From the NCBI GenBank assembly GCA_964460395.1, contig CAYWQS010000007.1:11135-75134 (forward strand): DNA of 64,000 nt, read 5' to 3'. The DNA comes from an uncultured Solibacteraceae bacterium (lineage in GTDB: Bacteria; Acidobacteriota; Terriglobia; Bryobacterales; Bryobacteraceae). This document shows positions 28,445 through 60,358 of this stretch, piece by piece (positions within the stretch are counted from its first letter, which is position 1; every line of letters starts with the position of its first letter). The notes beneath the pieces are model-generated. The model was given only the letters and a program-made list of their open reading frames with translations, searched no databases and had not been told where the DNA came from. The translations under genes and the position numbers were made by a program.

Positions 28445-31579
<3,135 letters not shown>

Positions 31580-33113: not shown

Positions 33114-33119
33114 CGGCCG

Positions 33120-45510: not shown

Positions 45511-45656
45511 CACCTGGTTCTTCCAGAGAATACCCCATGAGCACCGCAAGGCATCGTGGTGATGGGGGGCCGGCTTCCTGTTTATGGATCGCCGGATCGA
45601 CTCTACCTTGGAATCGAACCATCACGGCATGACGATGATCCAAACACCGTGGTGAA

Positions 45657-45869
45657 TCACGCGGGCAATTCGACTTCGATCTCCCGTAGCATCGAACCGG
45701 GTGAGATGTCGGCTCGGATGGATTCAAGGTAAAGGCGAATTGCTTCCCCGGCGCGCGCCGTGAGTTCGTCAAGCGATCCGCCGGTTACAAGAATGGCCGG
45801 AAGTTCGGGTACGTAGGCGCTGTAGCTGCCAGGTTCACCTTCAATTGCGAGAGAGTAGCTGCGCTTCAT
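45657..45869 (-). CDS. hicB: HicB-family antitoxin (UPF0150 fold only)
   Basis: 70 aa. YSLAIEGEPGSYSAYVPELPAILVTGGSLDELTARAGEAIRLYLE. ATGA overlap with upstream hicA. Confidence 0.75.
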   Translation of the reverse strand: MKRSYSLAIEGEPGSYSAYVPELPAILVTGGSLDELTARAGEAIRLYLESIRADISPGSMLREIEVELPA

Positions 45870-46066
45870 TTATCCGGCTCCTCAATACCAGTTTGCTTCA
45901 GGATCGCGCGCGATGTGCCCAGGCGCACGTCGTCGCCAAGTTTGCCTGATACTACGGTCACCCGTCCGTCTGCGCTTCGATAGATCCGATGATCCCCAGT
46001 GGTCCGTACGTGCCGCCAGCCATGTTGTTCCAGCAGTCGAATCACCTCTCGAACCTTCACTGGCAC
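45866..46066 (-). CDS. hicA: HicA-family mRNA interferase toxin
   Basis: 66 aa. VKVREVIRLLEQHGWRHVRTTGDHRIYRSADGRVTVVSGKLGDDVRLGTSRAILKQTGI. Confidence 0.8.
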   Translation of the reverse strand: MPVKVREVIRLLEQHGWRHVRTTGDHRIYRSADGRVTVVSGKLGDDVRLGTSRAILKQTGIEEPDK

Positions 46067-46139
46067 ATCATCAGTGTAACTTGCTGCACGTGCGGCCGGA
46101 GACGCCGCGATGCGGTAGAAGACACGCGGAAATGCGTGC

Positions 46140-46628
46140 TCAGGCCTTTTTGAACATCGCGATGGCTTCGATTTCCACCAGCAGTTCGGGGCGGCAGAGT
46201 TTGGCCTGAATGCCGGTGGAGGCGGGCAGGGGATCGAGGCCCTGTTCCGCGTAGAAGGCGGTGCGCTCTTCGTTGAAGGCGGCGTAGTCGCGGTCGATGT
46301 CCCGCAGGTAGCAGGTCGTGCGGACGATGTCGTGCCAGGTGGCGCCTTCGCTCTTCAACAGCTCCGTGATGTTGTGGAAGGTGCGGCGGCACTGGGCGCG
46401 GAAGTCCCCCACGTGAACCGTCTGGCCGTGCTCATCAATGCTGGCCGTGCCCGAGATCAGCAGAATAACCACATTGCCGATATCGATGCGCATGCCGCGC
46501 GAGAAGGAACTGGGCTTGGCGTAGCTGAAGGCCTCATTCAAGACGTTCAGGTTGGTGATCGGCCGTTTGTCGATCGGTTCCTTCGATTGAGCCACCAGCT
46601 CCTCCATCATTTCACTCAAATTCATCAT
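46140..46628 (-). CDS. RidA/YjgF/L-PSP family protein (no signal peptide)
   Basis: ISGTASIDEHGQTVHVGDFRAQCRRTFHNITELLKSEGATWHDIVRTTCYL...PASTGIQAKLCRPELLVEIEAIA. Last gene of the operon. Confidence 0.75.
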   Translation of the reverse strand: MMNLSEMMEELVAQSKEPIDKRPITNLNVLNEAFSYAKPSSFSRGMRIDIGNVVILLISGTASIDEHGQTVHVGDFRAQCRRTFHNITELLKSEGATWHDIVRTTCYLRDIDRDYAAFNEERTAFYAEQGLDPLPASTGIQAKLCRPELLVEIEAIAMFKKA

Positions 46629-46631
46629 GAC

Positions 46632-47702
46632 TTAAGACTCCTTGATCAAACTCAACTCCCACTCGTTCTTCAGGCTCAGGCGAGCCGCGTGCACGGAGCG
46701 CGTATTGCGGTTGAGGGCGTTCCACTCGACGCGGCCAGCCAAGCCTTGCCAAGGCGTGAGATCAGTCAACGCCTGGCGGATTCCGTTGCGCGACGGGCCG
46801 GCCACCCGGACGGCCTCGATCAAAAGGCGCGCGCCGTCGCGGCATTGCGCGCGCGCATAATCCTCCCCGGCCCGCGTCCGGGCGAGGACGGGGTACACGA
46901 TGCCATCGGCGGCGGCGCCCGCCGCGCGCAGAAATGCCGCGCGGCCGGCGGCGGGGCCGGCATACAGACGGGCGCCTGCCAGTTGACGGGCGAGGCGGGC
47001 TGTATCGGCCGGCGGGGCGACGATCACGGCGCGCCGCGCCTCCAATTCCACTGCTCCTCCGGGCGCGAACTCCAGGTGGCGTTCGGGACTCACACGCTGT
47101 TTGCCAAAGAACCGGAGGAACTCCCGCACCAGCAAGCGCTCGTCGTGCGAGGTGGCCGAAAGCAGTGTGAACGGTTCGGCTCCGTCCGCGAGCACTTGCG
47201 CCCCCACCGCCGCGGCGATCGCAGGATCGGCCGGGAGGAGGGAAAACGCCCAAGGTACCATTGCGGCGTTGACGCTGCGGTCGGTCGAGATCAGATCGAG
47301 CAGCGGCAGGCGGGTTTTGACGGCCACCTGCTCGGCGAGATGCACCGAGTCGGACCCCGCCGCCGTCAGCACAGCGTAAACGCGCTCCTGGTAGGCCAAT
47401 TCCACGACCATGCGCGCGGCGGCGCGCCATGGGTCGGTGGTCCAGCGGCGGATGAGACGGAATGGCACTCCACCGATTCCACCCTGGCGGTTCGCTTCTT
47501 CAAAGACAGCTTCGACGGCGCGAAGGAGATCGTCCTCCGGTCCGAAGTATCCGATGGGGATTTCGCGGAGGCCGGCCGGGGGCGGCGGTTCCTCGGCTTC
47601 GCCCACGGCGGCGCGTTCGCGGGTGCGGTCGAGGTAGGGAGGGGGCGCGGCGGCGGCAAGGCCGCCCAGAGAAGCTACAAAACTGCGCCGCGTCCAGGGC
47701 AT
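46632..47702 (-). CDS. LivK-type (type I, Peripla_BP_6-like) periplasmic binding protein, Tat-like signal
   Basis: MPWTRRSFVASLGGLAAAA, then IPIGYFGPEDD...FEEANRQGGIGGVPFRLI, the typical start of branched-chain-amino-acid-type SBPs. ATG 47702 lies 4 nt after the upstream stop. Confidence 0.7.
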   Translation of the reverse strand: MPWTRRSFVASLGGLAAAAPPPYLDRTRERAAVGEAEEPPPPAGLREIPIGYFGPEDDLLRAVEAVFEEANRQGGIGGVPFRLIRRWTTDPWRAAARMVVELAYQERVYAVLTAAGSDSVHLAEQVAVKTRLPLLDLISTDRSVNAAMVPWAFSLLPADPAIAAAVGAQVLADGAEPFTLLSATSHDERLLVREFLRFFGKQRVSPERHLEFAPGGAVELEARRAVIVAPPADTARLARQLAGARLYAGPAAGRAAFLRAAGAAADGIVYPVLARTRAGEDYARAQCRDGARLLIEAVRVAGPSRNGIRQALTDLTPWQGLAGRVEWNALNRNTRSVHAARLSLKNEWELSLIKES

Positions 47703-47706
47703 GAGG

Positions 47707-49170
47707 CTATTCTTCGGTCTTCTCCGGAGTAAGTTCGCGGGCCACGCGGCTGCGGGGAGGGATCTGGCCTTGGGGGATCTCCCAATCCTCGCGGGAGTAA
47801 TACTTCCACTGCCCGTTCTCAAAGCGGGCCAGGAACACCTCGCCGATGTCGTCGAGCACAGAACTCAGCGGAATTTCGCCGGTGACTCCGGGCCATGGCT
47901 GTGTGCGGTAGGCGATAACATCCCGGATCTTGGCGCGGTTGAGCCCAGCCACCTGAATCGCCCAGATGAGCATATTCATTCCATCGTAGCCGTGAGCGGC
48001 GTAGGTTTCGGGCTCTTCGCCGTACTTCTTCACGAAACGCTCGCGGAAGGCAGCCAGCTTGGGATCCTTCCGGGCGGGGTTCCAGGGGAAGCCCGCGATG
48101 ACGCCTTCGGCATTCTTGCCGGCGAGTTTGACGAACTCGGGCGAAACAGTGCGGTCGCTGGCGAAGTAGGGCTGGTTCATGCCCATGCCGCGAATCGTGT
48201 TCAACACGCGGGCGCTGTCTTCGGCGTTGCCCCAGTGAACGATGGCGTCGGGGTTCATCGCCTTGATGCGCTCCACCTGCAAGGTGAGGTCTTCGGCTCC
48301 GACCTTATAGGCCATCTCGATGACGACGGGCCGGCCGCTGCGGCGGGCGCTGTCGCGCACCTCGCGGACCCCGAAGCGGCCATAGCGGTTCGAAGCGCGG
48401 ATGATGGCGACGCGCTTGTAATCCATCTTGCGGAACAGGTAGTCGGCGAGCAGGTAGCCCATCTGCCGGTCGTCGCCGATGCAGCGCATGGTCCAGGGGA
48501 TGTTGGTTTCGATGAAGGTGGGGTCGGTGTCGCCGGTGTTCATCATCACCACCTCCGCCTTAAGGGCCACGCGGATGGCAATGTGGGAGTTCGCCGAGTC
48601 GATGGTGCCAAGCAAGCCGAAGACATTGTGCTTGTAGGCCATATTCGTGACTTCGTTGCCGGTGGAACCCCAGAGGCCGTTGTCGTTGGCGACGATCATT
48701 TCGAAGGGGATGCCGCGGCGGAAGTACCCGCCCTGGGCGTTCCATTCGTCCACGGCCATTTGGGCGCCCTTCAGCATCATGCGTCCCAGCGTCTCCTCAT
48801 GGCTCTTGCCCCCGGTGGCGATCGAAACGGTGCTTTCGATGGGCCCGATGAAGCCGATCTTGACGGTCTTCAGATCGGGGCCGGGCTCGGGGATGGCGCG
48901 TCCCGGCCCGGTGTATTCCATCTGCAGGAGGAAGTGCTCCTTGTAAGGCTTGGTGCCGCGGAACGGTTCGTAGTCTACGGGCGTGCGGGCATAGTTCTCC
49001 TCACGCTTCAGGCCGAGGTCGGGCACGGTATAGGCGTCGACCGCGTTGATGCGGCGGAGGACTTCGGCGGTGCCCGGATCGATGAGAGCCTCGAGCTTCT
49101 TCATGCGATCGGCGGCGGGGTCGGATGCGAGCAGCGCCGGGACGGCAAGGAGGAAGGCGAGCGCGCGCAT
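47707..49170 (-). CDS. LivK-type periplasmic binding protein, Sec signal
   Basis: MRALAFLLAVPALLA; KIGFIGPIES...GAQMAVDEWNAQGG...VFGLLGTIDSANSHIAIRVALKAEVVMMN...YAAHGYDGMNMLIWAI. ATG 49170 is preceded by AAGGAG and lies 2 nt after the upstream stop. Confidence 0.8.
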   Translation of the reverse strand: MRALAFLLAVPALLASDPAADRMKKLEALIDPGTAEVLRRINAVDAYTVPDLGLKREENYARTPVDYEPFRGTKPYKEHFLLQMEYTGPGRAIPEPGPDLKTVKIGFIGPIESTVSIATGGKSHEETLGRMMLKGAQMAVDEWNAQGGYFRRGIPFEMIVANDNGLWGSTGNEVTNMAYKHNVFGLLGTIDSANSHIAIRVALKAEVVMMNTGDTDPTFIETNIPWTMRCIGDDRQMGYLLADYLFRKMDYKRVAIIRASNRYGRFGVREVRDSARRSGRPVVIEMAYKVGAEDLTLQVERIKAMNPDAIVHWGNAEDSARVLNTIRGMGMNQPYFASDRTVSPEFVKLAGKNAEGVIAGFPWNPARKDPKLAAFRERFVKKYGEEPETYAAHGYDGMNMLIWAIQVAGLNRAKIRDVIAYRTQPWPGVTGEIPLSSVLDDIGEVFLARFENGQWKYYSREDWEIPQGQIPPRSRVARELTPEKTEE

Positions 49171-49172
49171 GG

Positions 49173-50321
49173 CTACTCTTCTCCTTTCTGAGCGATCAAG
49201 CCGGAGGCGGGGGAGCGTTCGCGGAGGCGGGGGTAGTAATCGGCGCCGCGGCCCCAACCCAGACCCTTCGAGGTGCCCACCCAGACATCGTTGCCGTCGA
49301 AGTCGACGGCGATGATGAAGTTGTGCGGGATGCCGAGCTTGGACTCGACGCGTTCAAGCACGGTGCGGTCGCGGTAGACGGTGGCGATGCCGAGGTGGGT
49401 TTTGGGGTCCATCCTGTACTCGACCCAGGTGTTGGTGTCGGCGTCCATGATGGCGCCGACGCCCTTGTCGGAGCAGAACCAGGCCTCCTGAGCGCTGCGG
49501 CCCTTGCCGTTGTTGTTGAAGTCACTGGGCATGCCGGAGTCCATGTTGTAATAGCCCCGCCACTTGCGGCCGTCATAGCGGGCGTTGCCGAAATAGCTGG
49601 ACACCCAGAGCGTCTTTTCGACATACGTGGCGGAGGTGGTGATGACGTGGACGATGCCGTCGTCGCGATAGAGGTCGATTTCCATTTCGCCGTCGGGATC
49701 GAGGTAGTCTTTCCAGCGGTTGGTGGCAACGTCGTATTCGAGCACCCCGCTGCCCCAGACGGCGAGGTAGACTTTGCCGTCGCGGTAGGAGACGTTGTAA
49801 TTCCAGATCTCCTCCATGGGGGCGTTCTTCTCGGTGAAGATGGTCCACTCGCCGGTGGCGGTGTTGAGGCGGGAGGCGCCGGCGGTGGTGGCGGCCCAGA
49901 CGTTGTCGTTCTCGACGGCGATGCCATAGACGACATCGTTGACGATACCGGAATTCATCTGGTGATAGTGGTCGAAGCGGCCGCCGGAGAAGCGCGCAAT
50001 GCCGCCGCCGAATAAACCGAGCCAGACGTCGCCGGTCTTGGGATCGACATCAATGGCGGTGACGGCGCGCCAGGGGAGGCCGTCCTTCTCGGTCCAGCTT
50101 TTGACCTTGCCGGTGCGCTTGTCGAGCATGGCGAGGCCGTTCTCCGTGCCGATCCAGACGCGGGGGCCGTCGGCCTTGACGGAGAAGATGTGATCGTCGG
50201 GCAGGCCGTCGGCCGTGGTGATGTGCTTCCAGTCGGTGTAGACAAAGGGGAGTTTCTCGGCGCTCAGGGCGAGGGCGCCGAGCAGAGCCAGAAGAACAAT
50301 GCGGTGCATGCTGCCTCTCAT
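49173..50321 (-). CDS. Secreted stand-alone Reg_prop (two-component regulator propeller) repeat beta-propeller
   Basis: Signal peptide. Repeats of the GLPdd.I.sv..D..g.vWiGT..Gl type (ADGLPDDHIFSVKADGPRVWIGTENGLAMLD; KDGLPWRAVTAIDVDPKTGDVWLGLFGGGIARF; others). ATGA overlap with the upstream gene. Confidence 0.75.
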   Translation of the reverse strand: MRGSMHRIVLLALLGALALSAEKLPFVYTDWKHITTADGLPDDHIFSVKADGPRVWIGTENGLAMLDKRTGKVKSWTEKDGLPWRAVTAIDVDPKTGDVWLGLFGGGIARFSGGRFDHYHQMNSGIVNDVVYGIAVENDNVWAATTAGASRLNTATGEWTIFTEKNAPMEEIWNYNVSYRDGKVYLAVWGSGVLEYDVATNRWKDYLDPDGEMEIDLYRDDGIVHVITTSATYVEKTLWVSSYFGNARYDGRKWRGYYNMDSGMPSDFNNNGKGRSAQEAWFCSDKGVGAIMDADTNTWVEYRMDPKTHLGIATVYRDRTVLERVESKLGIPHNFIIAVDFDGNDVWVGTSKGLGWGRGADYYPRLRERSPASGLIAQKGEE

Positions 50322-53020
50322 AACGTTTTGAGGTACTCGATCAGGTCGTTCAACTGATCCTTGGTCATGTCATTGGTGAAGCCGTGCTTGTCGTACGGAT
50401 TGAACAGGGTCCAGATCTCTTCGAGGGACTTGGCCATGCCGTTGTGCAGGTACGGGGCCGAGTCGTAGATGTTGTTGAGGTGGGGGACATCGAACAGGCC
50501 GGTGCGGTCGGAGGGTTGTTTGGTGCCGACATCGAAGCGGCCCCGGTTGGTGTAGTAGGGGGCGGGGTGGCAGAAGCTGCAGCGGCCTTCAGGGGGGATG
50601 GGGCGGCCGTCGTTGGTGGTGGTGCGTTCGAAGATCACCTTGCCGCGCTGCTGGGCCGGCGTCAATTTGGCGCCGGGGGCGCGGTAGCGGTTGGGCGGCC
50701 GCGGGATGGTGGTGACGTAGTAGTCGAGGTCGGACAATTCTTCCTTGGAGAAGGGCAGGCCGCGCGTGAAGAAGACGGCGAGGCGCGCGCCGCACTGGCG
50801 CTGCAGGCTGGGGTTGGTGCCCTCCCACTTGAACGGGGCCGTATCGTTGATGCCGCGGAGCGTGCGGTTGTCGACGGGGCTGACGCCAATTCCGTCGGCC
50901 TCGATGTCGTAAGTAATGCGGTCGACGTGGCCGTCCGGGTGGCAGGAGTGGCAGGAGAACTGGCGGCGGAAGGTGATGGAGGCGTTGTGGAACAGGCGTT
51001 CGCCCCGGCGCGTCTTGGTGATCGTCTTGGGGCCGCCGAGATCGATCCGTCCGCACGCTTCCAACTTTTCGAGATCGATGACGGTCAAAGTGTCGTCGAG
51101 GGAATCGGCGACAAAGGCGAGGCGGCCATCGGGGGTGGTGACGACGCCGCGCGGGCTGGCGCCCGTGGGGATGTATTTCGGGATGTACTGGGCCGCCTGG
51201 CCGAGATGGTTCGGCAGAACATGTTCGCGCTGTTCCGGCGTAGCCTGTTCGAGGATGGCGCGGAGTTTGGCGATGTCGACGACAGCGGCGCGGTTGGTGC
51301 CGGAACTCGTGACAAGGGCGTAGCGGCCGTCGGGCGTGAAGGCGACATCCGTGGCGTCGGCGAAGCCAAGATTCGGCTCGTCCAGCAGGATCTGATCGAG
51401 GCGGCCGCCGGGCCAGGCGATGATCAAGCCGTTGGTAATGGTCCAGCCCTGGAGGAGCCGGGTCATGGGCACCATGCTCTTGGTGCGGTTCATGGTGGCA
51501 AGCGCGAACTCGCCCTTGGGATGCCAGGCGATCCCCGTGAGGAGGTTGGTGCCGCTTGCGGACCAGCGGTCGTCCACGCGGCCGCGTGCCGTCTCAATCA
51601 CAGTGATCTCCGAGGCCAGAGGGGTGCGGAAGCCGGTGTCATGAGAGTAAGTGTTCGTGACAAGGAGGCGCGAGCCATCAGGGGAGAGGGCGGCCGACCA
51701 TGGGCCGTTGCTGGCCTTGAGGACCTTGAGACGCTCCCAGGTTGAGGTGTCGAAAACGGTGATGTCGTCGGAGGAGGTGTTGAGCACGTAGAGCGTGCGG
51801 CCGGAGGCGTCGGTCAGCAGGCCATGCGGTTCGTCGCCGACGGGGAGGGTGCGCAGGACACGGCGGGCGGAGGCATCGACGACGGAGAGGGTGTCGTCCA
51901 TGCGGTTGGTGACATAGGCGAACTCGCCATTGGGGGAGAAGGCGATGCCGGTGGGCGCCTGGCCGGTGGGAATCTCGGCGACCAGGCGGCGGGCCGCGGT
52001 GTCGACGATGCCGACGGTGTTCGCGTTTTCGAAAGAGACCCAGAGTTCCTGGGAGCGCGGCCGGAGGGTGAGCCGGAGAGGCGTCTTGTAGACAGGTTCG
52101 GCAGGCGGTTCCGGGTAAGGACGGCCGTGGGCGATCTTTTTCCAGGCGGCTGAGTATTGGAAGGGCTTCCCGTGCGCCTGGAGGTGGCAGGCATTGCAGG
52201 AAGCGGCAGTGGGTTTGGAGTTCGGGTTGGAATGGCAGTCCTGGCAGCCGACGCCATCGGCGGCAGAGGGTCCGGGGCCGTGGCACTTCAGACAGGCGGG
52301 GGATTGCACGGGATCGGTGGTGAGCTTGCTTTGGGAGGCGATGACCGCGGCGCGAGGGGAACTCAAGGAGCCGTAGGCGCGGGCGTGGGGGGTGAGGCGC
52401 CATTGGGCGTAGGCCAGGGCGTTCCCGGAGACGGGCGGGACGTCGCCGCGGAGCCCGCCGTTCAAATTCCGCCCGGTTTTCGGCATGGCGTGGGCGATTT
52501 CGGCCAGGGCCTTCTTGAACTCAAACGGCGCGGTTTTGAGAACCGAGGTATGCGAGACCTTTTCAATGTGGCAGACCATGCATTCGGCCTCGCCGGGCAT
52601 GCGGAGGCCGGCCATCATGGCGGCCTTCCGGTCGCGCATGATGTTTTCCTGGGCGTATTCGCTGCCCGGGCCATGGCAGCCCTCGCACTGCATTCCGTCG
52701 ATGGAGCGGAAGTCGTCGTCACGCTGCCAGGGGTCGGCATCGGCGGCGACCGTGTGGCAACCGAGGCAGATAGGGGCTTGCATGGGATCCTGGCGGATGC
52801 CGGAAACCTTGGCGATTTCGCGGGAGACGGGCAGGGCGAGGACGGCGGTGGCGCGGGCGTGCTTCGTGGTGAGCCACTTGCTGAACTGGTAGCCCATGCC
52901 GGCGCCCTCGTGGCATTGGGCGCAGGCGTGGGCGCCGATGTAGACGGGCTTCTTCGGGGCGGCGAAGAGCCACAGGGCCAAAGGCAGGGGGAGGACCAGA
53001 AGCCAGGCCAGACGCCTCAT
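50318..53020 (-). CDS. Nine-CXXCH multihaem cytochrome c / YVTN beta-propeller / di-haem cytochrome c peroxidase (CCP-MauG-like) fusion, secreted
   Basis: 900 aa with a signal peptide. Seven N-terminal CXXCH motifs: CAQCH, CLGCH, CEGCH, CMVCH, CLKCH, CQDCH, CNACH. The first four sit in a c554-like context (YIGAHACAQCHEG). The central region has propeller blades (FAYVTNRMDDTLSVVD, LYVLNTSSDDITVFD, LAFVADSLDDTLTVID). The C-terminus is CCP-like, with FSCHSCHPDG and CSFCHPAPYY plus FDVPHLNNIYDSAPYLHNG. Confidence 0.85.
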   Translation of the reverse strand: MRRLAWLLVLPLPLALWLFAAPKKPVYIGAHACAQCHEGAGMGYQFSKWLTTKHARATAVLALPVSREIAKVSGIRQDPMQAPICLGCHTVAADADPWQRDDDFRSIDGMQCEGCHGPGSEYAQENIMRDRKAAMMAGLRMPGEAECMVCHIEKVSHTSVLKTAPFEFKKALAEIAHAMPKTGRNLNGGLRGDVPPVSGNALAYAQWRLTPHARAYGSLSSPRAAVIASQSKLTTDPVQSPACLKCHGPGPSAADGVGCQDCHSNPNSKPTAASCNACHLQAHGKPFQYSAAWKKIAHGRPYPEPPAEPVYKTPLRLTLRPRSQELWVSFENANTVGIVDTAARRLVAEIPTGQAPTGIAFSPNGEFAYVTNRMDDTLSVVDASARRVLRTLPVGDEPHGLLTDASGRTLYVLNTSSDDITVFDTSTWERLKVLKASNGPWSAALSPDGSRLLVTNTYSHDTGFRTPLASEITVIETARGRVDDRWSASGTNLLTGIAWHPKGEFALATMNRTKSMVPMTRLLQGWTITNGLIIAWPGGRLDQILLDEPNLGFADATDVAFTPDGRYALVTSSGTNRAAVVDIAKLRAILEQATPEQREHVLPNHLGQAAQYIPKYIPTGASPRGVVTTPDGRLAFVADSLDDTLTVIDLEKLEACGRIDLGGPKTITKTRRGERLFHNASITFRRQFSCHSCHPDGHVDRITYDIEADGIGVSPVDNRTLRGINDTAPFKWEGTNPSLQRQCGARLAVFFTRGLPFSKEELSDLDYYVTTIPRPPNRYRAPGAKLTPAQQRGKVIFERTTTNDGRPIPPEGRCSFCHPAPYYTNRGRFDVGTKQPSDRTGLFDVPHLNNIYDSAPYLHNGMAKSLEEIWTLFNPYDKHGFTNDMTKDQLNDLIEYLKTL

Positions 53021-54711
53021 TTCGCCTTGGCCTCACGCGTATAGGTAATGATCTGGCCGGTGCGGACGCCGCCATGTTTTTCGACGAAGCCGTCCGGCCA
53101 GCGGATCTCGAGATCGACCGTTGCGGCCTGGCCGACGCCGAAGTGGAGGCGCGAGTCCTGCTGGCCGAGATAGCCGCGGCCCGGGACCATGTCTTCGATC
53201 AAGCGCATGCCGTTCGCGATGACGGTGACGCGGGCGCCGATGGCGTCGCGCGTGCCGGTAGGGAACTTGAGGCGCGGAATGACGGTGAGAGAACGGTTCT
53301 CGTTCCTGGTGTCGTTGCGGAGCAGAACGGCCGTGGAGTTCAGGTTGACGATGACGAGGTCAATGTCGCCGTCGTTGTCGTAATCGAAACCGGTGCCGCC
53401 GCGGCCGACGTGTTTCTCAAAGAAATAGCCGCCGGCCTGTTCGGAAACGTCTTCGAATTTGCCGTTGCCCAGGTTGCGGACGAGGGCGTCTTCCTGGGAG
53501 TACTCGTGGTGGGCGTTGCCGTGGACGGTGAAGATGTCGAGCCAGCCGTCGTGATCGAAGTCGAACATCATCGCGGCCCAGCCGGCGTACTGGCCGAGCG
53601 CGACGGCGACGCCGCTTTGCTGGGACTTGTATTCGAATTCCTGGCCGCCGGGTTTCTGGATGAGGAGGCTGCAGTAGTTGAGGTCGGGGATGAAGACGTC
53701 GAGCCAGCCGTCGCGGTTGACGTCGCCGACGACAGGGCCCATGTGGGCGACGCCTTGCCCGTCTTCGGAGAAAGCGATGTTGCGTTCGAGGGCGCGCTCG
53801 GCGTAGACGCCCTTTTCGGTCATTTCGAAGTAGTAGTTCTCCATCGCGTCGTTGGCGGAGAGGACTTCGAGTTTGCCGTTGTTATTGAAGTCGGAGGCGG
53901 TGACGGACATGGCGCGGCCGCCGGGAAACCACATGCCCATCTCCTTGGTGACATCGGCAAAGGTGCCGTTGCCGTTGTTGCGGAAGAGGGTGTTGGGCTG
54001 GCCGCTGTAGCTTAAGGGGCCCGGGTAGCCTTGGGCGGGGTAGAAGTCGCGGAACTTGCCGTCGTCATAGAGCAGGTAGTTGCCGACGTAAACGTCGAGC
54101 CAGCCGTCGTTGTTGAAGTCGAACCAGACGGCGGAGAGGCTCCAGCGGGAGTCGTTGACGCCGGCCTCCTTGCCGACTTCGGTGAAGGTGCCGTCACCGT
54201 TGTTCCGGTAGAGTTCGTTTTCGCCGTAGTTGAGGACGTAGAGGTCGACGTCGCCGTCGTTGTCGTAGTCGGCAGCGGAGCAACCGGAGGCGTAGCGGAT
54301 GCCGGCGACGCCTGCCTGTTCAGTGACATTCGTGAAGGTGCCGTCGCCGTTGTTCTTGAAAAGCGCGTTGGAAAGTTTGCCGCGCAGGTCGCGGCCTTCG
54401 TTGTCGCTGACGCCCTTCGTCCAGCGGCCATTGGGGAAATAGACGTCGAGGAAGCCGTCGTTGTTGTAGTCGAAGACGCAGACACCGGTGCCGGTGCCCT
54501 CGACGATGTTGTCCATGTGGTGGTCGCCGTAGGACTGACGGAAGTGGAGGCGGCTGGCCTTGGTGACGTCGGTGAAGATAATGGGGCCGGGGGGGGCGGC
54601 GGCAGCAGCGAGCGCGAGCAAGAGAAGCGGCAGATTCATGCGGAGGATCTTGTGAGGGCGGAGGCGGCAGGATAAAGATATTCCGGTCTGCAACACCCGA
54701 AAAGCATTCAC
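53017..54711 (-). CDS. CRTAC1-family protein (FG-GAP repeats + ASPIC/UnbV C-terminal domain), secreted
   Basis: Repeated FDYNNDGFLDVYFPNG / ADYDNDGDVDLYV / FDFNNDGWLDVYV / FDHDGWLDIF / YDNDGDIDLVI Ca-binding FG-GAP loops. C-terminal RLHFGVGQAATVDLEIRWPDG. Start is GTG 54711 (conserved with the copy B gene) or ATG 54639. Confidence 0.85.
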   Translation of the reverse strand: MNAFRVLQTGISLSCRLRPHKILRMNLPLLLLALAAAAAPPGPIIFTDVTKASRLHFRQSYGDHHMDNIVEGTGTGVCVFDYNNDGFLDVYFPNGRWTKGVSDNEGRDLRGKLSNALFKNNGDGTFTNVTEQAGVAGIRYASGCSAADYDNDGDVDLYVLNYGENELYRNNGDGTFTEVGKEAGVNDSRWSLSAVWFDFNNDGWLDVYVGNYLLYDDGKFRDFYPAQGYPGPLSYSGQPNTLFRNNGNGTFADVTKEMGMWFPGGRAMSVTASDFNNNGKLEVLSANDAMENYYFEMTEKGVYAERALERNIAFSEDGQGVAHMGPVVGDVNRDGWLDVFIPDLNYCSLLIQKPGGQEFEYKSQQSGVAVALGQYAGWAAMMFDFDHDGWLDIFTVHGNAHHEYSQEDALVRNLGNGKFEDVSEQAGGYFFEKHVGRGGTGFDYDNDGDIDLVIVNLNSTAVLLRNDTRNENRSLTVIPRLKFPTGTRDAIGARVTVIANGMRLIEDMVPGRGYLGQQDSRLHFGVGQAATVDLEIRWPDGFVEKHGGVRTGQIITYTREAKAK

Positions 54712-54768
54712 CGAGGTCTAGTTTATGCTGGCGCTGCGGATTTGCCCATAGCGTGAAGGTATTAGTGG
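54695..54768 (-). repeat. Copy A of a conserved ~75-nt 5' element (upstream of CRTAC1 operon)
   Basis: Aligns with 56915-56989. The outer blocks are 27/33 and 19/22 identical and the middle ~20 nt diverged. Orientation relative to the downstream minus-strand gene is the same in both copies. Confidence 0.65.
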
Positions 54769-54801
54769 TTTTGGAGGGGCGGGAGCTACTGCGTTTGAGG
54801 C

Positions 54802-55056
54802 ATGGGCTGGCGTGACCGCATCGCGGCAGATCTGCGAATTCTGGTGGGGAAGCCTGGAGTGAAATGGATCCGGATTGCGGTGGAGTTGGTGATCGATCTG
54901 TTGGCTCGCGCGCTGGACCTCGAGCAGATTCGCGATAGCTATCCCGGGGTGTTCGGGGAAGAGCATGATGAAAACGCCGGAAGAGATCGCCTTGCTTGCT
55001 GTGCCGGCCTTCAGGTTGCAGGTCTGTCCATGGATGCAGGGGGTGGAGATGTTTGA
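54802..55056 (+). CDS. DUF433-like small protein (antitoxin-like), C-terminus possibly frameshifted
   Basis: DLRILVGKPGVKWIRIAVELVIDLLARALDLEQIRDSYPGV follows the DUF433 pattern (GKPvikGTRIpVe.ildlLa.G.s.eeI...YP.lt). After YPGV the expected ...TxEDIxAALxYA continues better in the +1 frame (KTPEEIALLAV). Confidence 0.45.
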   Translation: MGWRDRIAADLRILVGKPGVKWIRIAVELVIDLLARALDLEQIRDSYPGVFGEEHDENAGRDRLACCAGLQVAGLSMDAGGGDV

Positions 55057-55127
55057 GAGGCGGGCCGCGGCGAGGAGTGGGTGCTAGGCTGGGCGGAACG
55101 CTGATGGCGGGTCGAGGGAGGCTGGGC

Positions 55128-55593
55128 ATGGCAAAGGTGGTGCTGTTGCGAGGGGTGAATGTGGGCGGGCACGATTGTGATTCGAAAGGCAGTGACGCAG
55201 GCGGAAGCGCGGCAGGCCGGGGCGGCGCGGCTGCCGTTCGCGACCGGGATCATCATCTGCAACGGACGGGAGGTGTTGCGGTTGATGGAGGCCGGGGACT
55301 TCGCAGAGTATCCGGTGCGGCCCGACCTAGTCCGGTTTGTGAGCGTGCTGCCCCGGATGCCACGGTTTGCACCGCCCGTGCCATTTGATCTTCCGGCAGG
55401 CGAGAAACGATGGCTGGTAAAGGTGGTGGGGCGGCACGGACGGTTTGTGTTGGGGCTATACCGGCGGGAGATGAAGGCGATCCAGGCGCTGGGCGGCCTG
55501 GACCGGGCACTGGGTGCGCAGGCAACGACACGGAACTGGAACACGATGATGGCGATTGCAAGGGTGCTGGGGTGGCGAGGGGGCGGGAAGTAA
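55128..55593 (+). pseudogene. DUF1697 family gene disrupted by frameshift and internal deletion
   Basis: The family N-terminus MAKVVLLRGVNVGGH is read from ATG 55128 in one frame. The rest (PFATGIIICNGREVLRLME...LGAQATTRNWNTMMAIARVL) is in the frame of ORF 55159-55593. The usual ~35-40 aa between the two (LG..V.TYI.SGNVVF) is missing. Confidence 0.55.
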
Positions 55594-56970
55594 TCAGGGT
55601 GCGGACTTATTGTGAGTAAGAGGAGTGGCCGGTTTGCCGAGGGCGGTGGCGAAGCGGTTTTCGGGGGTGAGTTCGGGGTCTTCGTGGCAGCCGATGCAGC
55701 CGCGGTTCTCCTTGTTTTTGACCCAGAACCAGTTGCTGGAGCGGAGGAGTTTGCCGGCGGCGTCGAGGGCTTCGACGCGGAGCGGGGTATTGGCGGGGGC
55801 TTCGACGTGGAAGGAGCCGTCGGCCTCCAGCGGCGCCTCGCCGAGGACGCGTTCGCCGGGGTAGGCGACGAAACGGACGCGGGCGGGTTTGGGCATGGGT
55901 TCAGCGGTGGTAAAGGCGCTGAGGCAATAGATTTTCCCGGTGGAAGCGGACTCCTCGACGACGGAGGCGCGGCCGGGCGGGACGGGGCGGGGGGCGAGTT
56001 CACGGGGTTGGATGTCGTGGCGCTGGGGGTCGTCGTAGAGGAGAGTGGCCTGCCCGGTGGCGGGATCGATGCGGTAGAGGCCGTGGGTCTGGTTGGGGAG
56101 ACGGCGGGCAGCGAGGATGGCTCCGGAGGAGAGGGCGGAGGGCCAGGCGTAGAGGCCATCGGAGGGGAGGGTGAGTGCCCGGTAGGTGTGGCGGTGGCGG
56201 CGGAGGTCGACGGTGGCAAGCGAGCCGGAGGAGTCCCATTCGGGCTGATCGTTCTCGACAAAGACGATGTGGCGGGAGGGCGCGTAGGCGGGCATGGAGC
56301 GAAAGGCGCGGCCGGGGGCGCCGGAGAAGCGTTCCACATCCGTTCCGTCGAGGTTGATGCCGTACAGGAGGGAGGATTTTTCGAAGCGGGCGGAATAGAG
56401 GAGGCGGCCGTCTTCGTTGAGGGTGGCGGTGGCGGCGCCGGCGGGGTGGTAGGTGAGGCGGCGGAGTCCGGAGCCGTCGAGGCGGGCGGAGTAGAGTTGC
56501 GGGACGGCCCCGGATTCGTAGCCGGTGAAGGTGATCTGGGGCTGGGGTTCGGGGTCGTCTAGGTAGAAGATTCTGGACTGGTAGATGGGGGAGCGGCAGT
56601 CCCAGGGAGTTTTGACGACCTGGCGGAGATTGCGGCCGTCGCGGCCGGTTTCGTAGATCTGCCAGGGGCCGGCGGCGGTGCGTTTGGCGGCGAAGAGGAT
56701 CCGGGTGGCGTCCCAGGAGACCGCCGGGTCGGCGGCGGAGTGGAATCCGGGGGCGAGGGGCCGGAGAGCGCCGGAGGGGGTGAGCAAGACGAGGCGGCCC
56801 TGTTCGCCGGGGGGCAGGCCCGGGGTGGCAGGCATCTGGACAAAGACGATGGGCGGGCGGGCGGCGGGCGGGGTTTGGCCGGTGAGCGCCAGAAGCAAGA
56901 TAAAAGAGCTGAAAACCCGAAAAGCGTGCACTGGTGTCCAGTTTATGGGAAAGCGCGCGGGGAGGGCCAT
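55594..56970 (-). CDS. PD40/TolB-like beta-propeller protein with C-terminal single-haem CXXCH module (HzsA-related architecture), secreted
   Basis: Signal peptide, then propeller-like repeats (ILFAAKRTAAGPWQIYETGRDGRNLRQV; LYSARLDGSGLRRLT; LLYGINLDGTDVERF). C-terminal DGSFHVEAPANTPLRVEALDAAGKLLRSSNWFWVKNKENRGCIGCHEDPE. ATG 56970 or the conserved GTG 56931. Confidence 0.75.
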   Translation of the reverse strand: MALPARFPINWTPVHAFRVFSSFILLLALTGQTPPAARPPIVFVQMPATPGLPPGEQGRLVLLTPSGALRPLAPGFHSAADPAVSWDATRILFAAKRTAAGPWQIYETGRDGRNLRQVVKTPWDCRSPIYQSRIFYLDDPEPQPQITFTGYESGAVPQLYSARLDGSGLRRLTYHPAGAATATLNEDGRLLYSARFEKSSLLYGINLDGTDVERFSGAPGRAFRSMPAYAPSRHIVFVENDQPEWDSSGSLATVDLRRHRHTYRALTLPSDGLYAWPSALSSGAILAARRLPNQTHGLYRIDPATGQATLLYDDPQRHDIQPRELAPRPVPPGRASVVEESASTGKIYCLSAFTTAEPMPKPARVRFVAYPGERVLGEAPLEADGSFHVEAPANTPLRVEALDAAGKLLRSSNWFWVKNKENRGCIGCHEDPELTPENRFATALGKPATPLTHNKSAP

Positions 56971-56989
56971 AACGCGAAGGTATTAGGGG
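56915..56989 (-). repeat. Copy B of the conserved ~75-nt 5' element (upstream/5' end of HzsA-like gene)
   Basis: See copy A. It spans the 25-nt gap after the DUF155 gene and the first codons of ORF 55594-56970. Confidence 0.65.
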
Positions 56990-56995
56990 CGGGGC

Positions 56996-58078
56996 TCAGA
57001 GGATGCCGGCTTCGCGGAGGAGGAAGACGAGGTCGATGATGAGGATGATGACGACGGCGAGTTCGAGGACGAAGGCGCGGCCGTGGTGGATTTCGTTGAC
57101 CATGAACTGGTAGAGGTCGCCGGCGGTGCGGAGTTTTTCGTCGACGAGTTTGCGGTAGTCGTTGACGCCGATGCGGTCGGCGGCGAGGCGGTAGGCGCGG
57201 GCGTAGAACATGTCGCCGATGAATTTGAGGGCGTTGTCGGCGCGTTCGGTGAGGTCGGTGACATCGAGGCGGAGGGCGTTGAGGCGGGCGGCGTCGCGGG
57301 CGTACTGCCAGCGGGTGAACCAGGAGCGGGGGGAGTCGAGGCGGGCGTAGGCCTCGCGGAGGACGGCGCTGATCACTTCGTCGTAGAAGCGGAACTCGAG
57401 CAACTGGGTGTTGGCGAATTCGAGGAGTTGGGTGGTAGCGAGGGCGCCCTCGTCGGTGTCGAAGACGACGGCGGCGGTCCAGCCGGGGATGAGGAGGTCG
57501 GAGGGGTAGTAAGAGAGGCTGCCGCGGACGACTTCGAGGCATTCGGCTTCGGCGAGCGGGGTGGTTTCGGTGCGGACGAGCTGGGCGAGTTCGGAGGAAT
57601 GGCGGGAGAGCAGGTCGGCGGCGGAGAGGATACCGTCGACTTCGCGGAGGTGGATGACGTAGTAGTCCTCGGTCATCCAGTGGGGGCTGGGTTTCTTGAG
57701 AGCGCCGGCCATGATTTCGGCGCCGCGGCGGGCGAGAGAGGCGGCGAGTTGTTCCACGTCGGCGGAGCCGGCGAGGCGCTGGTTAAGGCGGAGCAGGGCG
57801 GGCCAGTCGCAGTCGAGGGGGTGGAGGAGTTCGACGCTGACGACACCGTATTGAAAGACGCGGAGGGTGTAGGTGAACTCTTCGCCGGAATCGAGCCGGA
57901 CGGGTTCGCCGGAGAGGATGACCGGCGGATGCTCGAAGCGGACGTATTGGGGGGCGGGGAGGCGGAACTGGGGGCCGCGGCCCGGGGGCTGGCCGAGGCG
58001 CTGGCGGACGAGATCGAGATCGATTTCCTCGGCGATGTCGAACAGGAGGAGGGCGCGGTAGGCGCCACGCAGGGGCAT
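56996..58078 (-). CDS. RMD1/DUF155 family protein with C-terminal TM helix
   Basis: MPLRGAYRALLLFDIAEEIDLDLVRQRL start, internal helical region, and terminal hydrophobic helix FVLELAVVIILIIDLVFLL. ATG 58078 chosen; the upstream 103 codons of the ORF are low-complexity. Confidence 0.65.
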   Translation of the reverse strand: MPLRGAYRALLLFDIAEEIDLDLVRQRLGQPPGRGPQFRLPAPQYVRFEHPPVILSGEPVRLDSGEEFTYTLRVFQYGVVSVELLHPLDCDWPALLRLNQRLAGSADVEQLAASLARRGAEIMAGALKKPSPHWMTEDYYVIHLREVDGILSAADLLSRHSSELAQLVRTETTPLAEAECLEVVRGSLSYYPSDLLIPGWTAAVVFDTDEGALATTQLLEFANTQLLEFRFYDEVISAVLREAYARLDSPRSWFTRWQYARDAARLNALRLDVTDLTERADNALKFIGDMFYARAYRLAADRIGVNDYRKLVDEKLRTAGDLYQFMVNEIHHGRAFVLELAVVIILIIDLVFLLREAGIL

Positions 58079-58191
58079 GGGGGCTCCGTGAGGCAATTCT
58101 AGCGGGAACGGGAGTAGTACGCGGCGGGATTGTGTCCGGCGGAGAGGTGTGGCAGGGTTGGCCTGAGAGTCGAGGATATAGGAGTGCGAAT

Positions 58192-58791
58192 ATGCGAAGT
58201 CTGACGAGGGCCGCTGCTGCGGCCGTGCTGTGGGCCGGGGTGAGTCTGGGATGTCCTTTGTACGAGCCGACATATCCGCTGGTCCGGGATTTCGACGGGG
58301 CTGGAGTGGAGATCGGCGGAGCCGGAGCGCCGTGGCAGGCTGTGGCGTTTCAGTTCCGGCCGCAGCGGTCGACCCCGCTGAGTGCAATCCAGATCTTACT
58401 TACCTGTCTGGAGCCGGAGGACGGCGGAGCCGGCTGCGATTTTCTGGTGGAGTTGAGAGAAGACGAAAATGGCCTGCCGGGCCGCGAGATGGCATTGCAG
58501 CCCACACCGCGGTTTTATCGCGAGCAGTTGTACTGGATTTCCGTGGCCATTCTCAGCGGCGCACGGGGGCAGTGGGACTACCTCGCCTTCGTAGAGGAAT
58601 TGCGCGGGCGGATGGCGTTTCTTTCTTCGCAAGCCGGCGGGGGCGGCGCTTTGGGTGGTGTGGCGGGCGAGGAGGAGCAGGCTACACTAGCGGGTAAAGA
58701 TCAAGCGCATGCGACTTCTCATTGGTGTGCTCGTGTTGGCGGGAGTGGGCGCCGTGGCGTGGCAAGCACCGCGCGGGGCGATTCATTTTAG
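58192..58791 (+). CDS. Hypothetical small secreted protein
   Basis: MRSLTRAAAAAVLWAGVSLGC signal-like N-terminus and a plausible globular ~130 aa. The glycine-rich tail overlaps the next gene by 83 nt, so the true 3' end is uncertain. No recognised family. Confidence 0.35.
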   Translation: MRSLTRAAAAAVLWAGVSLGCPLYEPTYPLVRDFDGAGVEIGGAGAPWQAVAFQFRPQRSTPLSAIQILLTCLEPEDGGAGCDFLVELREDENGLPGREMALQPTPRFYREQLYWISVAILSGARGQWDYLAFVEELRGRMAFLSSQAGGGGALGGVAGEEEQATLAGKDQAHATSHWCARVGGSGRRGVASTARGDSF

Positions 58792-60358
58792 ATATCAGCC
58801 GCTGCCGTTCCGTTTGGAAAACGATGAAACGCAGAGGCGGTATGCGCCGGAGACGATGGCCGGCGGGGTGGCGGCGTTCGATTTCAACAATGACGGCCAC
58901 CTGGATATCTTCTTCCCGAACGGCGCGAACTTGAAGACGTTGAAGAAGGAAGGCCCGAAGCATTGGAACCGGCTGTATGCGGGGGATGGCAAGGGTAATT
59001 TTCAGGACGTGACGGAGAAGGCCGGGCTGGCAGGGACCGGGTATGACAACGCGGCGGCGGCCGCCGATTTCGACGGGGACGGATGCGTGGATCTTTTCGT
59101 GGGCGGCATCCACCGGAACACGCTGTACCGGAATCAGTGCGACGGGACGTTCCGGGACGTCACCGTGGAGGCGGGGCTGGCGGGAAAAGCGGATCCGCAG
59201 CACGGGCCATATTGGAACGTGGGGGCGGTGTGGTTTGATGCGGATAACAACGGGACGCTGGACCTGTTTGTGACGAATTATTTGGCCTGGAATTACGAAA
59301 AAGAGCCGAATTGCGAATACGAAAACCATTTTGAGTATTGCCACCCGCGGTATTACAAGGGGTTGCCGAACCAGTTGTTTCTGAACGATGGAAAAGGGCG
59401 GTTCCGGGATGTATCGGCGGAGGCGGGGATCCGGGCGCAGGTGGGCAAGGGGATGGGGGCGGCGATGGCGGATTTCGACGGCGACGGGTTGGCGGACCTG
59501 TTCGTGTCGAACGATAAGATGTTCAACTTTTTCTTCCACAACCGGGGGAAAGGGAAGTTCGAGGAGCGGGCGTTCGAGTTGGGCGTGGCGCTGGCTGAGC
59601 ACGGCGAGATGATTTCGGGGATGGGCGTGGATTTCCGGGACATCGACAACGACGGGCATCCCGACATTTCGCTGGTGGCGCTGGACCTGGAGACGTTCCC
59701 GGTGTTCCGGAACACGGGGAAGGGCGGGTTTGAGGAAGTGACTGGCCCGTCGGGGCTGTCTGCGCTGACGCGGAAGATGGCGGGCTACAGCCCGGTGATT
59801 GTGGATCTGGACAACGATGGCTGGAAGGACCTGTTTGTGACGCGGGGGCATGTGCAGTCGCCGCTGATGGCGCCGCGGGTGTTGATTGACCAGCACAACA
59901 CGGTGTTCCGGAACTTGGGCAACGGGAAGTTTGCGGCATTGACGGAGGAGGCGGGGCTGGCGGCGGGACCGGCGGCGCGGCACCGGGGTTCGGCGTTTGG
60001 GGATTTCAACGGGGACGGGCGGCTGGATGCGGTGGTGGTGGCGTTGTCGGGGCAGGCGCAGTTGTGGCTGAACGATTCGGAAGGCGCGGGGCAGTGGCTG
60101 GCGTTGCGGCTGCGGGGGCGGAAGTCGAACCGGGGGGCGATTGGGGCGAAGGTGAAGTTGGTGGCGGGCGGGAAGGCGCAGTACAACCACGTGACGACGG
60201 CGATGGGGTATGCCTCCTCGTCGGCGGGTCCGCTGCATTTCGGCTTGGGGGCGGAGCGGAAGGCGGAGCTGGTGGAGGTGACTTGGCCGTCGGGCGCGAA
60301 GCAGGTGGTGAAGGACCTGGCGGCGGGGCGGGTGCACGAGGTGGCGGAGCCGGAGTAG
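58709..60358 (+). CDS. CRTAC1-family protein (FG-GAP + ASPIC/UnbV), second paralog
   Basis: Signal peptide. FDFNNDGHLDIFFPNG, ADFDGDGCVDLFVG, FDADNNGTLDLFV, ADFDGDGLADLFV, IDNDGHPDISL, DLDNDGWKDLFV, GDFNGDGRLDAVV. C-terminal GPLHFGLGAERKAELVEVTWPSG. Confidence 0.85.
   Translation: MRLLIGVLVLAGVGAVAWQAPRGAIHFRYQPLPFRLENDETQRRYAPETMAGGVAAFDFNNDGHLDIFFPNGANLKTLKKEGPKHWNRLYAGDGKGNFQDVTEKAGLAGTGYDNAAAAADFDGDGCVDLFVGGIHRNTLYRNQCDGTFRDVTVEAGLAGKADPQHGPYWNVGAVWFDADNNGTLDLFVTNYLAWNYEKEPNCEYENHFEYCHPRYYKGLPNQLFLNDGKGRFRDVSAEAGIRAQVGKGMGAAMADFDGDGLADLFVSNDKMFNFFFHNRGKGKFEERAFELGVALAEHGEMISGMGVDFRDIDNDGHPDISLVALDLETFPVFRNTGKGGFEEVTGPSGLSALTRKMAGYSPVIVDLDNDGWKDLFVTRGHVQSPLMAPRVLIDQHNTVFRNLGNGKFAALTEEAGLAAGPAARHRGSAFGDFNGDGRLDAVVVALSGQAQLWLNDSEGAGQWLALRLRGRKSNRGAIGAKVKLVAGGKAQYNHVTTAMGYASSSAGPLHFGLGAERKAELVEVTWPSGAKQVVKDLAAGRVHEVAEPE

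Follow-up and report, generated by a model that had tools for sequence, protein, structure and literature searches.

A probable clade I hydrazine synthase homologue cluster in an uncultured Solibacteraceae bacterium

We examined a 64,000-nucleotide stretch of DNA from an uncultured Solibacteraceae bacterium (GenBank assembly GCA_964460395.1, contig CAYWQS010000007.1, positions 11,135 to 75,134 of the forward strand), referred to here as the window. Between positions 46140 and 56970, its minus strand carries a cluster of haem, propeller, and binding-protein genes that is, with high confidence, one copy of the "clade I" cluster of hydrazine synthase (HZS) homologues described by Hagglund et al. 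(Genome Biol Evol, Dec 2025, PMC12758564). Considering identity and mechanism together, the overall best explanation, which we regard as likely, is a periplasmic multi-subunit multihaem oxidoreductase homologous to the HZS of anammox bacteria. Sequence and profile comparisons showed homologues of all three HZS subunits in the cluster. Because the hydrazine-forming residues of HZS are missing and the scores fall far under the equivalog cut-offs, the cluster would almost certainly make no hydrazine. The cluster type is already published, and the present locus is a further member with small variations.

Gene content, layout, and conservation of the cluster

A first-pass annotation of the same DNA had described six co-oriented minus-strand genes between 46140 and 54711 with almost no intergenic DNA. 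The open reading frame (ORF) listing and the start and stop positions bore out these genes and their junctions: the six ORFs are tightly packed, and their third-position GC content is high. The six genes are real, but a seventh conserved member upstream of them, at 55594 to 56970 on the same strand, had been missed. This gene encodes an HZS-alpha-like protein of 458 amino acids (aa) (Pfam HZS_alpha, E = 3e-16) and is separated from the others by an insert of approximately 0.9 kb (54712 to 55593) that carries opposite-strand (plus-strand) ORFs and lies outside the conserved cluster. Next come the genes for a CRTAC1-type FG-GAP/UnbV_ASPIC propeller protein (53017 to 54711; FG-GAP_3, E = 6e-49; UnbV_ASPIC, E = 9e-19), a 900-aa beta-gamma-like fusion with nine CxxCH motifs (50318 to 53020), and a 382-aa stand-alone Reg_prop beta-propeller protein (49173 to 50321; Reg_prop, E = 8e-7). 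They are followed by genes for two LivK-type substrate-binding proteins (SBPs) and for a RidA/YjgF-fold protein lacking a signal peptide (46140 to 46628; Ribonuc_L-PSP, E = 2e-20). SBP1 (Peripla_BP_6, E = 1e-42) occupies positions 47707 to 49170, its start ATG at 49170 lying within an ORF of 47707 to 49257. SBP2, with a divergent LivK-type fold (partial Peripla_BP_6 match, E = 6e-14), occupies 46632 to 47702, starting at ATG 47702 within an ORF of 46632 to 47822.

Neighboring genes overlap or lie a few nucleotides apart. The FG-GAP and fusion genes share an ATGA overlap (53017 to 53020), 2 nt precede the SBP1 start codon (with AAGGAG upstream), and gaps of 4 and 3 nt precede the start codons of SBP2 (ATG 47702) and of the RidA-fold gene (ATG 46628), respectively. 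The fusion and Reg_prop genes also meet in an ATGA sequence (50318 to 50321), as claimed previously, if the Reg_prop start is taken at 50321. However, the public annotation of this protein (P0127, 378 aa) begins at ATG 50309, which is preceded by GAGAGG, a better Shine-Dalgarno-like sequence, and the real junction may therefore be an 8-nt gap instead of an overlap. For the FG-GAP gene, GTG 54711 and ATG 54639 are both candidate starts, with ATG 54639 the probable one. Hydrophobic N-terminal leaders are legible on the exported members, and attachment of c-type haem is known to need export. No promoter-like site was detected in a scan of 45600 to 58800, where terminator-like sites occurred at the level of shuffled sequence, and Rfam returned zero matches across the whole window.

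To the extent that contigs reached far enough to be counted, gene order was compared across 85 fetched loci from Acidobacteriota and Planctomycetota. Conservation outside this genome, which had been set beforehand as a test of the operon, was strong across these loci. On one strand, the conserved order was alpha-like, FG-GAP/UnbV, beta-gamma fusion, Reg_prop, SBP1, and SBP2. The alpha-like gene was kept in 75 of 75 loci (median identity to the window, 42%), the FG-GAP/UnbV gene in 78 of 78 (58%), the Reg_prop gene in 78 of 78 (69%), and SBP1 in 72 of 72 (68%); the fusion served as the query (56%). SBP2 was present in 60 of 65 loci (36%) and the RidA-fold gene, for which identity was not computed, in 34 of 59. 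Such an arrangement goes far beyond chance, given that virtually all of the related loci examined repeat this order. All-versus-all clustering of the flanking ORFs of the 85 loci yielded no conserved neighbors beyond the seven genes. From the synteny counts and this clustering, the predicted functional unit is six core genes plus the RidA-fold gene as an optional seventh, and the comparison showed the cluster to be, by its gene order, co-inherited as a block across two phyla.

More than 1,400 homologues of the fusion were found; the best 120 were all full length, with 55 to 72% identity. When each GTDB species was represented by one genome, a scan identified relatives in 450 genomes. Carriers in the Acidobacteriota belong to the Bryobacterales, which include the cultured Paludibaculum fermentans as well as the nearest named relatives of the window; those in the Planctomycetota belong to the Pirellulales, Thermoguttaceae, Phycisphaerae, and Sedimentisphaerales.

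Homology to hydrazine synthase

The earlier statement that these genes have no known pathway context proved wrong: the fusion is a homologue of HZS beta and gamma, and the HZS-alpha homologue lies just upstream. The first-pass count of nine haem motifs in the 900-aa protein and all of its domain calls were confirmed by counting CxxCH motifs (residues 33, 85, 112, 147, 243, 259, 275, 690, and 814) and by Pfam, which detected Cytochrome_C554, a YVTN/lactonase propeller, and a weak CCP_MauG match. The protein begins with a c554-type multihaem extension (residues ~26 to 300, positions 52121 to 52945) that contains seven of the motifs (Cytochrome_C554, E = 1e-20; PDB 1bvb, E = 3e-5). An HZS-beta-like seven-bladed YVTN propeller follows (residues ~313 to 660, positions 51041 to 52084; 5c2v_B, E = 2e-38), and the C terminus is an HZS-gamma-like di-haem module of the cytochrome c peroxidase (CCP)/MauG type (residues ~666 to 900, positions 50321 to 51025; 5c2v_C, E = 3.7e-15) with the CxxCH motifs at 690 and 814. 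Among NCBIfam models, the fusion matched hydrazine_BC (E = 6e-49; 166.8 bits versus a cut-off of 1250), hydrazine_beta (E = 1e-41; 142.9 versus 560 bits), and hydrazine_gamma (E = 1e-18; 67 versus 625 bits); TIGR03866 also matched under its cut-off (E = 7e-35). When the propeller was modeled with AlphaFold2 (AF2), its best match in the whole PDB was 5c2v_B (E = 3.6e-29, template modeling [TM] score of 0.88, root mean square deviation of 2.4 Å).

Alignment to 5c2v_C (offset +39) equates Cys743 of the fusion with gamma-Cys165, Trp732 with gamma-His144, and Arg746 with gamma-Asp168, and all three residues were invariant in the orthologue alignment A1. Cys743 is thus a candidate for a third covalent haem link, as gamma-Cys165 is in HZS. 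Gamma-Asp168 reportedly has a role near haem gamma-I. The di-haem module scored 17.4 bits with CCP_MauG (gathering threshold, 25.6) and has two haem motifs and the inter-haem Trp732; its core resembles the FWDG and RN-P-L motifs of bacterial CCP. Weak matches of the N-terminal domain were of MtrC/MtrF and DmsE type, the MtrC-type ones under threshold. Haem motifs were arranged 8+2 in 77 loci and 7+2 only in two loci (L005 and L006) and the window, the fifth motif having been lost in that clade.

The alpha-like protein has a signal-like leader, a TolB-type propeller, an HZS_alpha middle domain, and one haem motif, CIGCH (residues 425 to 429, minus-strand codons at 55684 to 55698), which is the equivalent of the HZS haem alpha-I motif. 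Its best NCBIfam match was hydrazine_alpha (E = 7e-25; 87 bits versus a cut-off of 800). As a single sequence it matched PDB 5c2v_A with E = 9e-15, and a profile built from 16 orthologues matched the same chain over its whole length with E = 8.8e-82. In the profile alignment (chain offset +27), the alpha-like family has a two-residue gap at chain residues S563/Y564, which are alpha-Ser590/Tyr591, and alpha-Cys303 (chain C276) sits inside an insertion found only in HZS, with no alpha-like counterpart.

The protein is a short form that lacks the C-terminal haem alpha-II domain and ends 29 residues past its haem motif. A second alpha haem motif was present in 64 of 77 relatives, and the short form in 11 of the 77 loci, among them L005 and L006, the closest relatives of the window. 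Since those two loci also have the short form, it is native to the subclade. Truncation by the insertion was considered and rejected, given that the L005 and L006 genes are short while overlapping the FG-GAP gene; neither tblastn nor six-frame reading revealed a remnant of the lost haem domain in the insertion.

The distance from the alpha-like stop codon to the FG-GAP start has a median of 18 nt (75 loci) and is a 4-nt overlap in L005 and L006; here it is approximately 955 nt. DNA alignment to L005 and L006 showed that 54712 to 55593 is absent from these relatives. On its plus strand, the insertion contains a DUF433-like ORF (54802 to 55056; E = 2.5e-6) and, by ORF reading, a 144-aa ORF (55159 to 55593) with coding-like third-position GC and no family match. 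Another frame includes a weak DUF1697-like N terminus (MAKVVLLRGVNVGG). No convincing terminal repeats or target-site duplication were found around the insertion, which has evidently uncoupled the alpha-like gene from the other six in the present genome.

The combination of genes had not been recognized as a described system in the first-pass annotation, a view that is out of date. In a search for HZS homologues, Hagglund et al. (PMC12758564) described four clades in which genes for alpha-like and beta-gamma-like proteins are found together. In clade I, the upstream position belongs to the alpha-like gene; an FG-GAP gene of the CRTAC1 family separates it from the fusion gene, and downstream of the latter are genes for two ABC substrate-binding proteins (PMC12758564). 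Two c554 domains at the N terminus of the fusion add eight haem motifs (PMC12758564). Its members include P. fermentans, Syntrophobacter fumaroxidans, Thermogutta terrifontis, Aquisphaera giovannonii, Novipirellula artificiosorum, and Opitutus terrae (PMC12758564). In the clades, alpha-Tyr591/Ser590 fall in a gap, alpha-Cys303 and the beta-loop Glu are not conserved, the CCP/MauG tryptophan stands in place of gamma-His144, and gamma-Cys165 is kept; the authors concluded that the proteins are unable to make hydrazine (PMC12758564). Most of these residue points were reproduced independently here from the PDB alignments.

The window shares with clade I clusters the gene order, the Cys at gamma-165, the Trp at gamma-144, and the alpha-590/591 gap, and the P. 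fermentans locus (L015) has the same layout, with a fusion 60% identical. The window differs by having seven rather than eight N-terminal motifs, the short alpha-like form, and the 0.9-kb split. The main text of PMC12758564 makes no mention of the Reg_prop propeller or the RidA-fold gene. New here are the standing of Reg_prop and SBP1 as the most conserved parts, the predicted Asp-rich pocket of SBP1, the RidA-fold protein without Arg105, and a clade with nine instead of ten haem motifs in the fusion. That hzs-like genes belong to a wider enzyme family had already been suggested, as speculation, in PMC10732223. The Phycisphaerae UBA1845 genes described there are related but differently arranged, with an hzsA-like gene directly adjoining hzsBC and no FG-GAP gene (PMC10732223).

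Comparison with the HZS of Kuenenia stuttgartiensis (PDB 5C2V) revealed both shared and altered features. Homologues of alpha, beta, and gamma are encoded together on one strand, and the alpha propeller, the middle domain, the haem alpha-I motif, the gamma-I motif, and its third Cys are kept. In anammox HZS, however, haem alpha-I is ligated by alpha-Tyr591, and a Zn site is formed by alpha-His587 and alpha-Cys303; Tyr591 and the Zn site are absent here, gamma-His144 and gamma-Asp168 are replaced by Trp and Arg, and the haem alpha-II domain is absent in the window. The gene order is reversed, with alpha first, four extra conserved partners are present (FG-GAP, Reg_prop, and two SBPs), and the host is not an anammox bacterium. 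In anammox bacteria, a separate tri-haem electron donor supplies HZS; here, a fused wire of seven to eight haems stands in its place. No hdh or HAO-type genes occur within the 64-kb window.

Other haem proteins resemble parts of the fusion. The di-haem CCP/MauG/MbnH family has in common with it the two-CxxCH module with an inter-haem Trp, and the fusion differs by its predicted extra haem-linking Cys, by its propeller and multihaem wire, and by its subthreshold CCP_MauG score. Cytochrome c554 of Nitrosomonas (PDB 1BVB/1FT5) is a free tetrahaem carrier, whereas the c554-type unit here is duplicated (two repeats, seven to eight haems) and fused into an enzyme subunit.

Partner proteins and possible function

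The first-pass description of a mostly exported set with a stand-alone Reg_prop protein and two orphan LivK-type proteins was supported. The Reg_prop protein has a signal peptide and was modeled by AF2 as a single propeller (predicted local distance difference test [pLDDT] score of 87.7). Its nearest structure was one propeller of the periplasmic sensor domain of BT4663, a Bacteroides hybrid two-component system (TM score of 0.65 to 0.67, 16% identity). The protein contains no Y_Y_Y, kinase, regulator, or other domain and so does not classify as a hybrid two-component sensor.

SBP1 has a clear LivK-type fold (PDB 4gnr, E = 4e-26; Peripla_BP_6, 147 bits versus a cut-off of 31.7) and bears an N-terminal extension of approximately 100 aa. 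To map its pocket, 75 orthologues were aligned to Escherichia coli LivJ by sequence rather than by structural superposition. The LivJ sequence used is taken to be correct, all 11 key letters standing at the expected numbers. The LivJ contacts L77-C78-S79, A100-A101-T102, Y150, Y202, and E226 corresponded to I-D-G/S, G-D-T, Y, D/N, and D in SBP1, and the pocket Asp residues (three to four positions in the alignment) were invariant among the orthologues. Being predicted to be Asp-rich, these positions argue against an amino-acid carboxylate ligand and would favor a cation. SBP2 (Peripla_BP_6, 53 versus 31.7 bits) has a twin-arginine-like leader, TRRSFV, is degenerate at the LivJ contact positions, and is poorly conserved. 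Both are orphan binding proteins: the amino-acid contact residues are changed in SBP1, and cognate permease and ATPase genes are absent. In agreement with the first-pass annotation, no ABC permease, ATPase, or kinase gene was found nearby, in the window or in the 85 related loci, nor was a membrane partner found near the cluster. Orphan binding proteins are also known from quinoprotein dehydrogenase clusters (MxaJ/XoxJ), and TIGR03866 is a YVTN propeller of pyrroloquinoline quinone (PQQ) catabolic clusters. There, as here, transporter-less proteins of SBP fold stand beside a periplasmic propeller enzyme and its cytochrome. The SBP family, the cofactors, and the enzyme all differ, and the likeness is an analogy, with no sign that the systems are homologous.

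The RidA-fold protein has the YjgF/L-PSP fold (PF01042, 73.3 versus 27.3 bits) but lacks the equivalent of Arg105 (E. coli numbering): PARS of HI0719 and PH0854 is PAST here, and the Ser is conserved in orthologues. It scored 53 bits with TIGR00004 (cut-off, 106). The gene precedes the core in 20 loci and follows it in 14, so it is neither universal nor fixed at one end of the cluster. Since the protein lacks Arg105 and falls under the Rid-family cut-off, the earlier suggestion that it handles a reactive imine or enamine is weak. In some Planctomycetes/Pirellulales loci (L035:5130-6233 and L067:4884-6035), the gene is replaced by one for an approximately 370-aa protein whose C-terminal domain is the homologous part and whose best NCBIfam match is FkbO/Hyg5 chorismatase (61 bits versus a cut-off of 325, E = 1e-16). 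This hints that the 162-aa RidA-fold protein of the acidobacterial cluster represents that domain on its own.

The redox machine first proposed, which would sit in the periplasm and take up a small ligand by way of its SBPs, is still a plausible reading. We put forward a mechanism that is, as a whole, tentative. Electrons would run along the fusion's built-in seven-haem c554-like wire to the gamma-II-like haem and, by way of Trp732, reach the gamma-I-like haem linked to Cys743, at which a small oxidant (for example, NO, NH2OH, or peroxide) would be reduced. The alpha-like subunit, through its one His-ligated haem, would provide a second site for reaction or transfer. The two extra propellers and two SBP-fold proteins would be fixed periplasmic partners and not transport components, with SBP1 presenting a cationic ligand. 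A more specific version, which we consider rather doubtful, is a two-site, tunnel-coupled periplasmic nitrogen transformation in soil Acidobacteria and Planctomycetes; for example, NO might be reduced to hydroxylamine at the Cys-linked haem, and the alpha-like haem might couple or dispose of this product together with a cationic amine or ammonium that SBP1 delivers.

Several points weigh against the HZS-like oxidoreductase and its proposed mechanism. Electron flow could equally be directed outward, and its direction, the substrate, and physical complex formation are points that we infer. The AF2 model of the fusion is confident in the propeller only, with pLDDT below 50 in the haem domains. 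The mapping of the SBP1 pocket comes from sequence alignment to LivJ, not from a structural superposition. Because opposite-strand ORFs separate the alpha-like gene from the other six, its co-expression with them is uncertain in the present genome. Finally, the literature that we found on the clade I cluster type is comparative genomics only, with no experimental study.

Four other explanations were weighed. MauG is known to mature methylamine dehydrogenase, and MbnH to mature MbnP. By analogy, the complex could be a peroxide user of the MauG/CCP type that detoxifies H2O2 or matures a cofactor or cross-link in a partner propeller or SBP. The CCP/MauG tryptophan W732 in place of the HZS histidine, weak matches to CCP_MauG, MbnH, MauG, and RoxA-like models, a weak match of the propeller to the quinohemoprotein amine dehydrogenase beta subunit, and the strict co-inheritance of several non-enzymatic-looking partners all fit this proposal. 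However, the match to HZS gamma (E = 4e-15) is far stronger than those to CCPs (1.5e-4) or the MbnH-like 6e1c (2.7e-6), and the extra haem-linking Cys is an HZS feature. An eight-haem wire and an alpha-like haem subunit would be excessive for peroxide removal, and strict anaerobes, S. fumaroxidans among them, carry the cluster too. We therefore judge peroxide use unlikely.

Slightly less probable is a metal-redox or extracellular-electron-transfer module in which SBP1 binds Fe(II) or Mn(II) and the haem complex oxidizes or reduces it. FG-GAP repeats typically bind Ca2+, which we counted in its favor, as we did the three to four invariant Asp residues at SBP1 pocket positions and the weak MtrC/MtrF and DmsE-type matches in the N-terminal domain. 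In addition, P. fermentans is reported to be a dissimilatory Fe(III) reducer (PMC8407742), and Hzs-like genes have been reported from Fe/Mn-rich tunnel biofilms. Against it, the neighborhood of the cluster has no conserved outer-membrane porin, cytochrome partner, or membrane quinol dehydrogenase, the MtrC-type matches are under threshold, and the Asp-rich pocket comes from alignment.

It is very improbable that the genes are functionally unrelated neighbors, with a sensor-like propeller, transport SBPs, and a cytochrome adjacent by chance. SBP and Reg_prop domains are usually parts of transport and sensing systems, and automatic annotations name ABC substrate-binding and ligand-binding sensor domain proteins; however, virtually all loci in the two phyla keep these six genes in one order and on one strand, their junctions overlap or span a few nucleotides, no permease, ATPase, or kinase is nearby, and Reg_prop and SBP1 are the most conserved members. 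Least probable of all is a genuine HZS, with which an acidobacterium would cryptically form N-N bonds from NO and ammonium as anammox bacteria do: three homologous subunit types are clustered, the gamma-Cys165 equivalent is kept, and acidic SBP1 pocket positions could suit ammonium, but all four NCBIfam scores lie far below their cut-offs, a deletion removes the alpha-Tyr591 haem ligand and Ser590, alpha-Cys303 has no counterpart, Trp and Arg take the places of gamma-His144 and gamma-Asp168, the alpha-like protein of the window lacks the haem alpha-II domain, hosts include aerobic soil heterotroph lineages, and the published analysis (PMC12758564) also concludes against it.

The function of the HZS-homologous oxidoreductase is not assignable from sequence, and the clusters are testable in cultured hosts. 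HZS was long thought to be without relatives, and clusters of the present type are its closest known kin; their function, once found, would show from which chemistry anammox evolved and might reveal an unrecognized periplasmic redox process in soils and sediments. Were the two-site nitrogen transformation true, it would represent a widespread unrecognized nitrogen-cycle route and a living model of the HZS ancestor. The present instance identifies Reg_prop and the predicted Asp-rich SBP1 as the most constrained parts and the RidA-fold gene as dispensable, and it provides a natural variant with nine haems in the fusion, a short alpha-like protein, and a split operon.

Surroundings of the cluster in the window

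Directly downstream of the RidA-fold gene, a HicA toxin gene (45866 to 46066) and a HicB-like antitoxin gene (45657 to 45869), both on the minus strand, share 4 nt. The relative L006 has another toxin-antitoxin pair (Xre/RES) at a distance of a few kilobases. On the other side, a 463-aa minus-strand ORF with a hydrophobic C terminus (56996 to 58387) stops 25 nt short of the alpha-like gene; it had no Pfam or NCBIfam match and no counterpart in the 85 loci. A second FG-GAP/UnbV paralogue (58709 to 60358, plus strand) is divergent from the cluster. The longest ORF of a very large DUF5107/TPR protein (59890 to 63834, plus strand) overlaps this paralogue, and the DUF5107/TPR gene had no counterpart in any of the 85 loci. 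Extra FG-GAP/UnbV and TPR genes flank the cluster in the Planctomycetes loci L002 and L004.

A group of haem-related genes lies 11 kb from the cluster (31728 to 35296, minus strand) and encodes a protoporphyrinogen-oxidase-like flavin amine oxidase (31728 to 33119), uroporphyrinogen decarboxylase (33120 to 34175), and, in the same group and on the same strand, an ApbE flavin transferase (34139 to 35296). Three large genes for CarboxypepD_reg/TonB-dependent-receptor-like barrels were found at 13014 to 15200 (minus strand), 16390 to 19584 (plus strand), and 28445 to 31585 (minus strand); outer-membrane barrels of this kind are common in Acidobacteriota, and their presence agrees with the taxonomic position suggested by the best matches. 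An 837-aa secreted-looking protein (22680 to 25193, minus strand), unrelated to the cluster, has weak matches to a lactonase-type propeller and to the phosphoesterase family. Tandem class I tRNA synthetase genes of the Glu/Gln type occupy 8010 to 9629 and 9560 to 11356 (plus strand), their longest ORFs overlapping.

Between 32000 and 64000, GC skew was strongly negative from 36 to 46 kb, where genes lie on the plus strand, and strongly positive (up to +0.36) from 46 to 64 kb, where they lie on the minus strand. Since the sign of the skew follows the gene strand, the coding strand is C-rich in either orientation; the sign change at approximately 46 kb tracks gene orientation, unlike that of a replication origin or terminus.

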